From assembly GCA_013288815.1 (NCBI GenBank), contig JABDBD010000004.1:18404-82403 (forward strand): a stretch of DNA of 64,000 nt, read 5' to 3'. Origin of the DNA: Gammaproteobacteria bacterium (GTDB taxonomy: Bacteria > Pseudomonadota > Gammaproteobacteria > DSM-16500). Of the stretch, positions 275-39,413 are shown in pieces; the stretch's first letter is position 1; each line of letters begins with the position of its first letter. The translations under genes and the position numbers were made by a program. Below the pieces are notes generated by a model. The model saw only the letters and a program-made list of their open reading frames with translations, did not search any database and was not told the origin of the DNA.

Positions 275-508
275 ATGAAAATAGCTAAATTGTTTCAAAA
301 TGGCCAGAGCCAAGCTGTTCGTTTACCAAAAGAATTTCGATTTGAAGGCGAAGAGGTTTTTATTAAAAAAATGGGTGAAGTGACTATCCTCATTCCTGTT
401 AAAAATCCGTGGGGATCACTACGAAATAGCATTAATAAATTTTCTGATGACTTTATGGATTCTAGAGCACAACCGAAACAACAAGAACGGGAAGATATTT
501 TTTTATGA
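275..508 (+). CDS. vapB: VapB antitoxin (AbrB/MazE/SpoVT fold)
   Basis: N-terminal AKLFQNGQSQAVRLPKEFRF signature, 77 aa, ATGA overlap with a vapC start. Confidence 0.92.
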   Translation: MKIAKLFQNGQSQAVRLPKEFRFEGEEVFIKKMGEVTILIPVKNPWGSLRNSINKFSDDFMDSRAQPKQQEREDIFL

Positions 509-741
509 AATACATGCTAGTACCGTTTCCATTTAATTTTGACCGGTTGCATCTCATCTTGCATTTATCTTTGAGCGATTAGTCTTTCAAAAAATGCTCG
601 AGTTAGCGGAGCTAGCCCTCCGCTTTTTTGAAAGACTAATCGCTCAAATCTAAACGCAATCTGAGCGCAACCGGTCAAAATTAAATGGAAACGGTACTAG
701 ATACAAACATGTGTATTTATATTATCAAGAAGCATCCTGAA
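505..741 (+). pseudogene. vapC: vapC toxin remnant, interrupted by a 180 bp palindromic insertion and truncated
   Basis: Removing 521-700 restores MKYMLDTNMCIYIIKKHPE, a typical PIN-domain VapC N-terminus; the insertion carries an in-frame TAG and the rest of the gene is replaced by the convergent GT gene. Confidence 0.88.
517..700. mobile_element. palindromic MITE/RPE-like hairpin element, copy A
   Basis: CTAG at 517-520 and 697-700; perfect terminal arms GTACCGTTTCCATTTAATTTTGACCGGTTGC / GCAACCGGTCAAAATTAAATGGAAACGGTAC; perfect inner stem; the empty site can be reconstructed in vapC. Confidence 0.88.
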
Positions 742-1918
742 GACGCAGATGCTCATATTGTTGAATAATCGCATCAACAATCTCTTGATTAGACATGAAC
801 GTTTTTAATTTCTCGTAACCATTATTTCCTAAATTCGCAGCCATTTGTTTATCGACCGCTAATAATAAAATTTTCTCAGCAAGATCATATTGTTTGAAGG
901 GATTAAATAAAAGCCCTGTTTTTTTATCATCTATCAACCAAGCAGTAGGGCCGCGATCAGATCCAATGATTGCGCGTGCATTTGCCATGGCTTCTGTCAT
1001 GACTAATCCAAAGGCTTCCAATCCTATGCTGGGAAAGATAAGGGCGATACATTCTTGAAATAACTCTTGCGGATTTACCCAGCCACAAAAAAAGATGTTG
1101 TTCTCTAATTTTAATTGCTGGACCTTTTGTTCTAGTGATTTTTTTAAAGAACCTTTACCCGCTATTTTCAATATTAAATTTTGATTGTGTTGACACGCTA
1201 ATGCAAACTCATCAATTAATATATCAATGCCTTTATGCTTTTCGAGTTGACCGATATACATAAAACAATTCATTTTTTTATTGTTTCTATCAATGGTGCT
1301 ATTTTCTGGATGGAAAGGCGGTATATAAATGGCATTTTTAAAATTATTTTTTTCTAAATAGGTTACAAGTAATGGCGAGGGCGCCATAAATTTTTTAACG
1401 GTTTTTTTTAAAAGTGTTTTACGTTTATAAAAAGCAAATAAATGTGCGAGATACAATAAAAAATTTTTTCCTCTTTGATGTTCTCGCCAGCAAAGCGCAT
1501 TTAATCCCGTCGGGCAAACTTGTAAGGTATTGTGGACATTCCATCCTGTTGGACAGATAGAAGTATAGTCATGCACGGTTTGAATGACAGGATAAGGCAT
1601 GACTGCTTTTAATAAAGAAACAGTGTAGGTTCTGACGTTATGTAAATGGATGATGTCTGGCGAAAAGTTTTCGATGACTTGCTTTAATTCTTGATATTTT
1701 GCAGGGCTGAAAAACATTCGCCACCATTGACGTATGGGTAATGATGAAGAACTTTTTACTATTTCAAAATCAGGGCCGCTCTCAGCTTTTTCTCCAAAGC
1801 CTAAGCTAAAAACGGTGAGACCCGCTTGTTTTTTTAGTGCATTTTTTAAGGTAAAAAAATGCTTTTCTGCGCCTCCGGCAGATTCGGAATGAGTGTCTGT
1901 GATTAATAATATTTTCAT
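725..1918 (-). CDS. glycosyltransferase family 4
   Basis: MKILLIT...GGAEK N-terminus, GQLEKHKG, EAFGLVMTEAMA; ATG at 1918 preferred over the ORF-track start at 1945. Confidence 0.88.
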   Translation of the reverse strand: MKILLITDTHSESAGGAEKHFFTLKNALKKQAGLTVFSLGFGEKAESGPDFEIVKSSSSLPIRQWWRMFFSPAKYQELKQVIENFSPDIIHLHNVRTYTVSLLKAVMPYPVIQTVHDYTSICPTGWNVHNTLQVCPTGLNALCWREHQRGKNFLLYLAHLFAFYKRKTLLKKTVKKFMAPSPLLVTYLEKNNFKNAIYIPPFHPENSTIDRNNKKMNCFMYIGQLEKHKGIDILIDEFALACQHNQNLILKIAGKGSLKKSLEQKVQQLKLENNIFFCGWVNPQELFQECIALIFPSIGLEAFGLVMTEAMANARAIIGSDRGPTAWLIDDKKTGLLFNPFKQYDLAEKILLLAVDKQMAANLGNNGYEKLKTFMSNQEIVDAIIQQYEHLRLQDAS

Positions 1919-28556: not shown

Positions 28557-28743
28557 CTAAGGACCTGTGCAACAATAACTTATCTTTCTTGCATCTCATC
28601 TTGAGGCTATCTTTGAACGTTTTATTCTTCGAGAAAACACTTACATAGCGCAACTATGCGCGTATTTTCTCGAAGAATAAAACGTTCAAATCTAACCTCA
28701 ATCTGAGCGCAAGAAAGATAAGTTATTGTTGCACAGGTCCTAA
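28557..28743. mobile_element. palindromic MITE/RPE-like hairpin element, copy B
   Basis: CTAA at 28557-28560 and 28740-28743; perfect arms GGACCTGTGCAACAATAACTTATCTTTCTTGC / GCAAGAAAGATAAGTTATTGTTGCACAGGTCC; internal motifs shared with copy A. Confidence 0.88.
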
Positions 28744-31700
28744 TACGTCAATAAAGGCTCTCTTAAATTATCTCTTAAGTTATCTCTTAAGTTATCTCTT
28801 AAGTTATCTCTTAAGTTATCAGCAACGTTATTATTTGGCTGTCTAATTAAATCCTCAACGTCATCCCCTGCTACTTGAAGTGTGTCTCCAATCACTTTTT
28901 TCCCTATCAAGAAATCTGGGATATGTTTCTCAATCTCGCTTAAGGACTCGAGAAGTTGTTTTTTATTTTTCTTGAGGTAATCATGAAGTCCTTTGTTGTG
29001 TTCTTTTAGTTGCTTCATGACTTCTTTCACACGGTAGCCGGATTGACTCATCCACCATTGCAATGCTTTTAGTGCATCGAACTCAAGCTGCAATGTGCTT
29101 ACTTTAAAGAAACATGAAAAGCAACGAGTTCTATTCTTAGCTTTTTTTGTATCATTTTCAATGCAATTTATTAAATCAATTCTACTGGCTGTTGATAAAA
29201 ACGGTTTGAGCATCGTACCTGTTCGGCCCTCAGATAACAGATGACACTCACGATCAGTTAAAAAACTTGTGAAAATATGCAAGTTATTTTGATTTACTAG
29301 TTGTGCATATATTTTTTGGAGAGCATCCATTTTATCTTGTTTTATATTTGAAAATTGGCGAGCGTTGAATTTCTCGTTAAATAATTCATTTTTACGTTGA
29401 ACAATTTTATTTAAAAGCTCTATTTTCAAATTTTCTTTAATCACTCTCTCTTCATCAGCCAGTGCTTGCTGAGAAGATTGAATCCGCTTTACCATAAATT
29501 GTTTGGTTAGCCAATCATGACTACTTGCGGAAGAAAATAATTCACGACGTTGCGACAAAATTGCTTGTGTATATGGGAAGTTTTTTCCTCCTTCAAATCT
29601 ATAACCTAGCGCTGCTATTTTTGATGAAAATACTTCAACTATGTCGCGAAATGATTTTCCGCCAACCGATATAGCGCTTGATATATATCCTTCCTTTAAA
29701 TAAAGTTGAGTTTCTAATTTATCAAATAAAAGAGTAAAGTTATAAAGAACATGATTGATTTGTTTTGCTGCGTGCAGGAATTGATCCGTTGATAAAATAG
29801 ATAATGAGTCAATTAACTGAGAAGCGCGACTAGCAAATTTAAATAATTGGCGTGGATTTTTTAATATGAAGGCTATCGCAGATGTTTCTTTTTGCTGAGC
29901 GGCAATTAACATGTCTGCTTTTTCAAAGCCTTTCTTAACAGCAGCTTTGATAGTTTCGTCTCTATTTGAGAGGTCATTCAGCGCAGAATAGAGTAGTCGA
30001 ATATCCTGAAGCGCGCCTTTTAATGTATCATTATCAGAAGCATAATCATTTTTGCTAACCCAGGCTAGTTTTGCAGGATGATCCGATAAGGGCGCAACCG
30101 CCGCTTGTTGTAGAGTCCCTATTGCGCTCGTTAATAGATCCGCAATCGGTGGTAATGCATTAATAAACGGGTGATGGCGTAATGCTTGCAACTCTCCCAT
30201 CACGTTTGTCAGTGATGAGATAGTTGTATTTAAATTACGGATAGTTTGTTGGAAGTGACTAATGGGTATTGCGCGTCTTTTATCTTCAGCAGTTGCTTTT
30301 GCTTGTAAAATTTTAGCTTCATTTGCTAATTTCTTAATATGTTTAATCGACTGAGCAATTGGAACCATCCACGAGGTGAACATATTAATGTTAACATTGA
30401 CTAAATTATCTTGATACTTTTCCTCTGAGTGTTTTTCTTCTTCTGTCACATCAATACAAACTCTCAATAGACTATCATCAACAAAACAATCTTGATGAAT
30501 GTTTTGGTCTAATTCGTCTTTTAATTTTTCTTCACACTTGCCAACAATAGCAAGAACTCTATCAAACACATTTTCTTTTGACTCTGCACCGTTTGATTGA
30601 GTTATGACTGATATCAATTGCTTGGTACCGCTAATTAACGCTGGCACATCGCTATCAATTATTTCTTCTCGTACATTTTCATGTGATATAGGTATGATAG
30701 GCCAATTCGATATTGTTCGTGGTAATTGTTCTAATACTTTTTCTGCTTGTTCGATTAGCTCTTTGTTATCGCTTTCTTGTTTTTTGAACCAAGCAGTACG
30801 ATTGTTAATGCGATCCATTGCATTCTGATAAATTAAACGGATCTTTGTTATAATTGTTTTATTCGTTCCCTCTTTTATGTATTTTTTAATGACCGTATCC
30901 AAATCCGTTATGCTCAGTGGCAAATGAGCGACTGGTTTTTGAGACTGTTGTTGATCCGGGTTAGTTATCTCTGGCGGTAATTTAGATTTGAGTAGTAGAA
31001 GTTGTTCTTTTTTAGATTTTTCTCGACCAAGTGTTGTCGGGTTTTCTTCGTATTCACGAATTTTAGCATCAATGATATTGATACTTTGTTTTTTGGCATT
31101 TTCCCAAATGTTTTTTTGAACGGCATCTTCTTGAAGTAATTGTTGGGATAGTGCGATAGGAAATAATTTTCGTTCTGCTAAAATCGATTTTGAAAATGGA
31201 TAAAGCTCTTCACACATCGGGTAACCCGCTTTTTTCATATCAGAAACATAAAGGCGAGTAAATTTCTCTGCTAATTGATGAAATGATAATGTGATACGTG
31301 TTTCAGGTGCTGAGGCATTGCTACTGTTGTTACTGGTAGTGAAAATAGGTTCGTCCAGTAATTTTTGTTTGTCGAGTCCGGATCGGCTAGCGACTTTTTC
31401 TAATAATAAATATGCGCGACGTATTCGAGTATTTAATTCTGATGCAACAATTAAAATAATATCTTGAGCAGTTTCAGAATAACTTGAAAAGTTATCACCT
31501 AATTTTTCTTCCATTAAGCGAATACCATCCTGCAATTTTTGGATGTGAAATGGCGGTAAAATAGTACTAATTGAGAAAGCTGAGGCATTATTAGGGATAG
31601 AGTTATTGATAGCTGGAGTAGCCACCAATCCTCCAACAATAAGATCTAATTCAAGATTATTAAAGGCTTTGATTAGCTCTGGCCCAAGTTTAATCCGATC

Positions 31701-39283: not shown

Positions 39284-39413
39284 TTAAGAAGGTGATTGCT
39301 GATTTTGTATATAATCTTTGATAATTGCAATAGGAGCACCGCCGCAGCTGCTGGCAAAATAACTGGGGGGCCAAAGCACTCCTTTCCAATAGTATTTCTG
39401 TTGAGTTCTTCAT
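39284..39413 (-). pseudogene. tnpA: IS200/IS605 Y1 transposase remnant with internal deletion
   Basis: ATG 39413 gives MKNSTE; another frame gives YYWKGVLWPPSYFASSCGGAPIAIIKDYIQNQQSPS*, the TnpA C-terminus. Confidence 0.85.

Follow-up and report, generated by a model that had tools for sequence, protein, structure and literature searches.

The window, a stretch of 64,000 nucleotides, carries two long-hairpin elements, copy A (517-700) and copy B (28557-28743), which belong to a real family of mobile hairpins. The ends of copy A match those of IS630-family insertion sequences, and the element is flanked by a duplicated TA dinucleotide. Copy A is very likely a MITE of the IS630 type that is moved in trans, with copy B belonging to a sister lineage and the inner hairpin being carried as cargo. 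The window is part of a MAG (G000) of 2.48 Mb in 86 contigs, which is 83% complete.

Overall fold and layout of copies A and B

DNA folding yields one long hairpin for each copy, with energies of -77.7 kcal/mol (z = -21.2) for copy A and -78.5 kcal/mol (z = -21.0) for copy B, and none of 200 shuffles matches the native energy in either case. Read on the plus strand, both copies have the same layout: outer arm, TTGCATCTCATCTTG-n6-TCTTTGA, inner stem, and apical mini-hairpin on the left side, then inner stem, TCAAATCT-n6-CAATCTGAGCGCAA, and outer arm on the right. The outer and inner stems are unrelated in sequence between the two copies and each is self-complementary; two TC/TC mismatches, an AT/C bulge, and an A.C mismatch are retained in both. 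A pair of hairpins with a shared mismatched core and unrelated, self-complementary stems, as described by an earlier reading made from the sequence only (the sequence-only reading), is thus confirmed by folding and strand alignment. The features are as follows (window coordinates, with the strand where one is assigned).

505-785, plus strand: vapC (PIN toxin), interrupted by copy A at codon 5
518-519: left TA of the target-site duplication around copy A, supported by the empty sites of G004 and G003
520-546: left terminal inverted repeat of copy A, GTACCGTTTCCATTTAATTTTGACCGG, an IS630-family end shared with the element that holds a DDE_3 remnant
547-574, minus strand: core of copy A, 5' side on the plus strand, TTGCATCTCATCTTG-n6-TCTTTGA, with the 15-mer identical in copies A and B
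575-594: left arm of the inner stem of copy A, variable and compensated
595-623: apex of copy A, an asymmetric loop (TGCTCGA / CCTCCGC) around the mini-hairpin
624-643: right arm of the inner stem of copy A, perfect complement of 575-594
644-670, minus strand: core of copy A, 3' side on the plus strand, TCAAATCT-n6-CAATCTGAGCGCAA
671-697: right terminal inverted repeat of copy A, perfect complement of 520-546
698-699: right TA of the duplication around copy A, with the same support
28558-28560: left TAA target duplication of copy B, with TAA...TAA around all four B copies
28561-28588: left terminal inverted repeat of copy B, GGACCTGTGCAACAATAACTTATCTTTC, class consensus GGRNC-n8-AATAAC
28589-28712, minus strand: inner module of copy B (core, inner stem, apex, inner stem, core)
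28713-28740: right terminal inverted repeat of copy B
28741-28743: right TAA duplication of copy B

The body of copy A is 178 bp long and without coding capacity. On the minus strand, its core at 547-574 gives the AGAU halves of tandem G.A loops. In L001/G083 the outer arm is the same as in copy A and the inner stem is different, with compensation at each changed position. The apex of copy A reads on the plus strand as a terminator-like AGCGGAG-CTAGCC-CTCCGCT followed by T5, and the apex of copy B is of type 2 (CACTTA-CATAGCGCAACTATG-CGCGTA). Directly after copy B lies a 12-bp tandem repeat, TCTCTTAAGTTA, in about five copies (window 28759-28831).

Insertion into vapC and target-site duplications

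Removal in silico of copy A together with one TA restores MKYMLDTNMCIYIIKK, and in two genomes of the same genus (G004 and G003) the vapC start MKYMLDTNMCIYIIKK is uninterrupted. The empty site of these relatives reads ATG-TTAG-ATAC, and the filled site of G000 reads ATG-CTA[element]TAG-ATAC; the real insertion that had been claimed for vapC is borne out by these intact sites. The gene is also truncated downstream, the excised frame being MKYMLDTNMCIYIIKKHPEDADAHIVE followed by a stop, and vapB upstream looks intact.

TA stands at both palindrome ends, plus chance extension, in most of the 141 elements examined, and the flanks outside TA differ from copy to copy. Because the palindromes usually end in TA and the flanks beyond it differ, the duplication is TA and not the 4-bp CTAR direct repeat proposed by the sequence-only reading; in copy A, the C and the G next to TA come from the target and from palindromy. 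Copy B is flanked by a TAA duplication instead. TAA...TAA flanks surround four of four B copies, and relatives with GG...AATAAC ends have matching TAA or TTA triplets.

Copy number, spread, and covariation

Both exact core motifs occur together in 11 copies in G000, seven of type A and four of type B, which are about 99 to 100% identical within each type and lie at unrelated sites. A covariance model built from eight variants recovered about 36 elements of 165 to 189 nt, in at least nine subfamilies, from G000; it also had matches in 38 of the 86 same-family genomes, representing 17 of 21 genera, and a model restricted to the inner module matched 40 of the 86, again in 17 of 21 genera. The recurrence of the core is far beyond chance, and the family that had been proposed from two copies has further members under both the motif scan and the covariance search.

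Among the eight variants, 55 of 76 pairs have two-sided changes and very few have one-sided changes. Three or four types of Watson-Crick pair occur at 49 of 61 paired positions in a set of 78 non-redundant copies, and the core loops and mismatches are conserved in at least 80% of these copies. The proposal that the internal mismatched segment is fixed while the stems change agrees with both sets, the mismatches being kept and the stem changes being compensatory. No Rfam family reached the gathering score in the window; a loose E-value returned only generic long-hairpin miRNA models, far below threshold.

G000 holds several derivative forms. Solo MITE termini of 14 to 56 nt, with no partner arm and beside unique sequence, are found outside the window for the A type (C16:2837, C17:27578, C54:1641, C77:405, and C47:56), the C type (C1:92463, C17:54979, C18:16042, and C67:3867), and the E type (C2:57749 and C20:30581). 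The same 20-mer, CTAG-TACGTTGTCGCA-CTAG, occurs at two unrelated sites, C17:54979 and C67:3867. These solo termini look like deletion remnants or products of repeated cleavage at an internal CTA. Two short derivatives of 87 bp (C2:71229-71315 and C70:4249-4335) consist of the inverted repeats and only GGCATCT-AAACGCAATCTGAGCGCC; a deletion joining ATCT repeats in the two halves of the core apparently produced them. At C23:9419-9696, an element of the TATACCC type (G) is nested at a TA in the apex of an element of the GGAACGAGC type (F).

Outer arms as ends of IS630-family insertion sequences

The sequence-only reading held that the termini vary. By sequence comparison, they are not free: the outer arms fall into a few classes that are conserved across genera, and four of these end classes correspond to terminal inverted repeats found in insertion sequences of the IS630 family (DDE_3). 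The copy A terminus, TAGTACCGTTTCCATTTARTTTTGAC, bounds a 546-bp element (L535:1360-1905) with a DDE_3 remnant (E = 3.7e-11). Many MITEs with other, unrelated interiors have this terminus too in Legionellales MAGs and in a Legionella isolate, as retained after extension filtering of a 15-mer scan that gave many chance matches. One G000 subfamily has the TATACCCATTACACYTCAAGATGCGAAC arm, which is also present in many MAGs of Coxiellaceae, Berkiellales, and other groups; in several of these MAGs the arm continues into a 1.1-kb insertion sequence, with three copies on one contig. The TATACCCATTAC class is the right inverted repeat of the 1.1-kb insertion sequence (~L066:4950-6055), whose 342-aa product scores DDE_3 (1.7e-34) plus HTH_33, which places it in the IS630 family. 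Since the left inverted repeat of this insertion sequence is unlike the right one, a MITE of the TATACCCATTAC class is a foldback of two right ends, a reading that covers the one class with both insertion sequence ends readable. In G065, the inverted repeats of two IS630 types match two further hairpin classes.

In the second of these types (1.8 kb), the left inverted repeat at L302:1345-1420 is followed by its own inverted copy, CAGATAATTATTTTGGT...ACCAAAATAATTATCTGA; such an extension of an insertion sequence end into a hairpin is a possible first step toward foldback MITEs. In three Dehalococcoidia records (L182, L243, and L265), MITEs of 130 bp share the first 21 nt of the copy A terminus, TAGTACCGTTTCCATTTGAAT, and their presence in Chloroflexota MAGs means that the IS630 end type of copy A crosses phyla.

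Neither an IS630 (DDE_3) transposase nor a fragment of one is present in the assembly of G000, where the L066 transposase has no match either; this MAG is 83% complete, and insertion sequences often remain unassembled. No core motifs flanking a transposase were found in G000.

A TA duplication is the signature of IS630/Tc1-mariner elements, and attC, REP/RAYT, and IS200/IS605 are without target duplication. The IS630-matching ends and the TA duplication therefore identify the elements as non-autonomous MITEs recognized by end sequence, contrary to the earlier proposal of recognition as folded ssDNA or RNA in the manner of attC or REP sites. With the variable termini understood as ordinary ends of IS630 type, the puzzle of an element conserved in shape but not in sequence is removed.

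The end class of copy B

Ends of the form GGRNC-n8-AATAAC are shared by copy B, type F, and elements in G097, G023, G082, G093, and G065. Searches with PF13586 and PF01609 did not find a cognate insertion sequence for this B/F class, and an end-pattern search of 86 genomes found none with B-type ends. A degenerate scan of contigs for B ends gave mostly chance matches, and a metagenome scan gave two chance matches in coding DNA. When compared with IS5/PIF-Harbinger (Tourist-like) elements, copy B has both the 3-bp TWA duplication and ends that start with GG; no IS5-family insertion sequence with matching ends was found in the searches made. The transposase of copy B may be IS5/Harbinger-like or an IS630 variant.

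A resident DDE_Tnp_1 insertion sequence on contig C16 of G000 has other ends and a 7-bp duplication. Also on C16, two to three tandem copies of a 41-bp mini-palindrome, CTAGATGGGCCACTTATA-n7-TATAAGTGGCCCATCTAG, lie at L385:2282-2385 and adjoin a 1.1-kb DDE_Tnp_1 insertion sequence (L385:1050-2148). This mini-palindrome may be a minimal MITE of two joined inverted repeats.

The inner module and its strand asymmetry

An inner module of about 125 nt is common to TA-type and TWA-type backbones and to at least five end classes. The covariance model search did not find it inside cognate insertion sequences. Movement does not require the module, given that MITEs combining A-class ends with other contents are multicopy. 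The module serves as cargo and is mildly novel, and the movement mechanism is ordinary. Co-correction of the arms, as supposed by the sequence-only reading, could plausibly proceed by quasipalindrome template switching, an established route for arm correction.

When folded as RNA, the minus strand (window orientation) is more stable in all 78 non-redundant copies, by a mean of 16 kcal/mol; the energies of copy A are -125.4 (minus) versus -113.3 (plus) kcal/mol, and that of the minus strand of copy B is -131.9 kcal/mol. G.U pairs total 340 on the minus strand versus 123 on the plus. Read on the minus strand, each TC/TC mismatch is a tandem G.A pair, AGAU opposite AGAU at a spacing of 9 bp, and the A.C mismatch is a G.U pair. 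The bias is not limited to the inherited core and extends to outer arms and inner stems: outer-arm mismatches in plus orientation comprise 47 A.C versus 12 G.T (about 41 versus 12 with one shared event merged), a count that the orientation choice of the model would, if anything, push the opposite way. Such a bias points to selection on, or damage to, one strand when it is single-stranded. Selection on a single-stranded form, probably RNA, would account for the bias, although transcription-linked deamination could produce it instead. The idea of a folded single strand, which fails for recognition of the element, thus survives in a weaker form for the inner module, as one strand systematically folds better.

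The elements lie between genes, mostly at 3' ends; in G000, 14 of 34 are between convergent and 5 between divergent genes. In tandem contexts, where one neighbor gene reads in, 17 are read in the minus sense versus 9 in the plus sense, a trend that is not significant. Both window copies have a terminator-like apex on the plus strand; a unidirectional terminator was rejected because this feature is not conserved across the 78 copies. The inner hairpin might be a functional structured RNA, or a DNA module acting as a single strand, that rides MITE backbones of two transposon types in Coxiellaceae-like genomes, a possibility that we regard as doubtful; the features that define such a module are the phased AGAU-opposite-AGAU tandem G.A loops and the G.U pair, all on one strand.

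The conserved non-Watson-Crick features and the better folding of one strand in every copy would also suit an element that is recognized and moved as folded ssDNA by a structure-specific enzyme, in the manner of attC, REP/RAYT, or IS200/IS605, with the stem sequence free and only the mismatched core being read, and G000 does hold two short Y1_Tnp (HUH) fragments, of which one lies within the window (~39299-39403). However, these matches are 41-aa remnants, and HUH and integron systems do not make the TA and TWA duplications with clean empty sites that are observed here. The outer arms, moreover, are sequence-conserved classes identical to IS630 inverted repeats, and MITEs with the same ends and without the core are multicopy as well. 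The TA duplication and the matches to IS630 ends largely refute movement of this kind, which we consider very improbable.

Two further explanations concern the core itself. It could act in double-stranded DNA as a binding platform for a host factor or accessory protein that promotes transposition or tolerance of insertions, the strand asymmetry then merely reflecting direct repeats. Four to five AGAT motifs repeat in direct orientation in each arm at intervals of about 11 bp, so that AGAT (ATCT) occupies one and the same strand in the two arms with a period close to one helical turn; an IHF site is established for Correia elements, and the 87-bp deletion derivative is still present in two copies. 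Such a platform is nevertheless distinctly unlikely: there is no known candidate protein, mobility with A-class ends does not depend on the core, and the scattered mismatches of outer arms and inner stems that favor G.T on the same strand are left unexplained. A core without function, frozen in one successful MITE chassis, is unlikely too. On this view, nested insertion and palindrome extension would have exchanged its ends, quasipalindrome template switching would preserve the pairing of its arms, and the strand bias would be mutational in origin. Nested insertions do occur (the G-type element in the F-type apex), perfect arms with few G.U intermediates fit correction at the DNA level, and orientation relative to genes is not significantly biased. 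Template switching should, however, erase the TC/TC mismatches, the bulge, and the A.C mismatch, which are kept in at least 80% of 78 copies from 17 genera while the adjoining stems are saturated with change; a mutational bias would need a consistent orientation of transcription or replication, and none is seen.

The Y1_Tnp remnants, at window 39299-39403 (minus strand) and at C36:22550-22654 of G000, cover only the C-terminal third of the model. The window remnant, of an IS200-type HUH transposase, sits in the spacer before hipA.

Comparison with known elements

The closest known kinds are palindromic MITEs of IS630 type, namely ERIC/MITEEc1, Correia, and RUP. ERIC (IRU) of enterobacteria and vibrios is MITEEc1, which is filed under IS630 in ISfinder. 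Correia elements (NEMIS) of Neisseria are hairpin MITEs of 100 to 155 bp with 26-bp inverted repeats and a TA duplication, located at gene ends; their transcripts are processed as hairpins, and they have an internal site for a host factor. The name MITEEc1_IS630 for ERIC/IRU appears in PMC11602168, where Correia elements are cited as well. ERIC resembles the elements described here in being an imperfectly palindromic, intergenic MITE with insertion at TA and a long RNA hairpin when cotranscribed; unlike them, it is 127 bp long and of unrelated sequence, has one end class, and has no reported module shared across end classes. Correia elements are similar in being hairpin MITEs with inverted repeats, TA duplication, and gene-end location, but their sequence is unrelated, no transposase is known for them, and they do not have several end classes. 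RUP of Streptococcus pneumoniae (IS630-Spn1) is likewise a MITE with inverted repeats matching an IS630-family insertion sequence and with a TA duplication, but it is 107 bp long, is not a near-perfect long hairpin, and has no conserved mismatched core. Among plant elements, Stowaway (Tc1/mariner) resembles copy A in its TA duplication and stable hairpin, and Tourist (PIF/Harbinger) resembles copy B in its 3-bp TWA (TAA/TTA) duplication and ends starting with GG; the elements here differ from both in being bacterial and in that both end types carry one homologous inner module.

attC, REP/RAYT, and IS200/IS605 elements are recognized as a folded single strand with conserved extrahelical or mismatched bases and free stems, as the sequence-only reading proposed for the present family; their lack of a target duplication, much shorter length, and link to an integrase or an HUH enzyme are defining features that the elements here do not share. 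attC sites are 57 to 141 nt long, with R and L boxes and an adjacent integron integrase and cassette array. Identity with attC was rejected, as the copies are dispersed and intergenic, have TA/TAA duplications, and lack a cassette context. REP/RAYT and IS200/IS605 PATE elements are short GTAG-headed palindromes or subterminal hairpins with an HUH Y1 transposase; this identity was rejected as well, the two 41-aa Y1_Tnp remnants being the only trace of such an enzyme and the elements being 180 bp long with target duplications. Rickettsia palindromic elements are characterized by in-frame insertion in genes and by RPE consensus sequences; nearly all of the elements here lie between genes.

Coxiella burnetii, a related bacterium, has QMITE2, a long-hairpin MITE of 150 to 190 bp that lies at gene 3' ends and is weakly transcribed as an sRNA (PMC5896051). 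Its direct repeats are 7 to 11 nt long and vary in sequence, and its GTAG REP is targeted by IS1111 (PMC5896051). The elements here differ from it in their TA/TWA duplications and IS630-type ends, a distinction drawn from the published description of QMITE2. Unlike in QMITE2, which is targeted by IS1111, the IS110-family gene of G000 is not inside an element. A link to IS110 (bridge-RNA type) was rejected, as this sole family member, on C1, is neither in nor beside an element. The gene (DEDD_Tnp_IS110; C1:127264-127698, L031:622-2010) encodes 462 aa, is longer than usual, and has no clear ends.

Proposed mechanism and significance

In the explanation that we favor, an IS630/Tc1-mariner-type DDE transposase acting in trans would bind the 27- to 32-bp outer arms of copy A, and the element would be excised as double-stranded DNA and reinserted at a TA, which is duplicated. 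The cut-and-paste chemistry is expected by analogy with characterized members of the IS630 family. The transposase requires an identical binding site at either end, which would account for the perfect self-complementarity of the outer stems. Copy B would represent a sister lineage with another end class (GG...AATAAC) and a 3-bp TAA/TTA duplication.

The fixed non-Watson-Crick features of the inner module, namely two or three AGAU-AGAU tandem G.A loops, the bulge, and the G.U pair, would make sense only on the minus strand. We tentatively suggest, with somewhat less than even confidence, that the module may be kept by selection on the fold of a minus-sense read-through RNA at gene 3' ends. It could then work as an RNA-stability or RNase-processing hairpin, as in ERIC and Correia elements, and either this selection or quasipalindrome template switching, or the two together, would maintain the complementarity of the inner-stem arms.

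The elements break genes, as with vapC here, and occupy many gene 3' ends. They make up an undescribed, widespread MITE superfamily in uncultured Coxiella-like bacteria. If the module acts as RNA, it would show how transposons can spread small structured RNAs through a genome.
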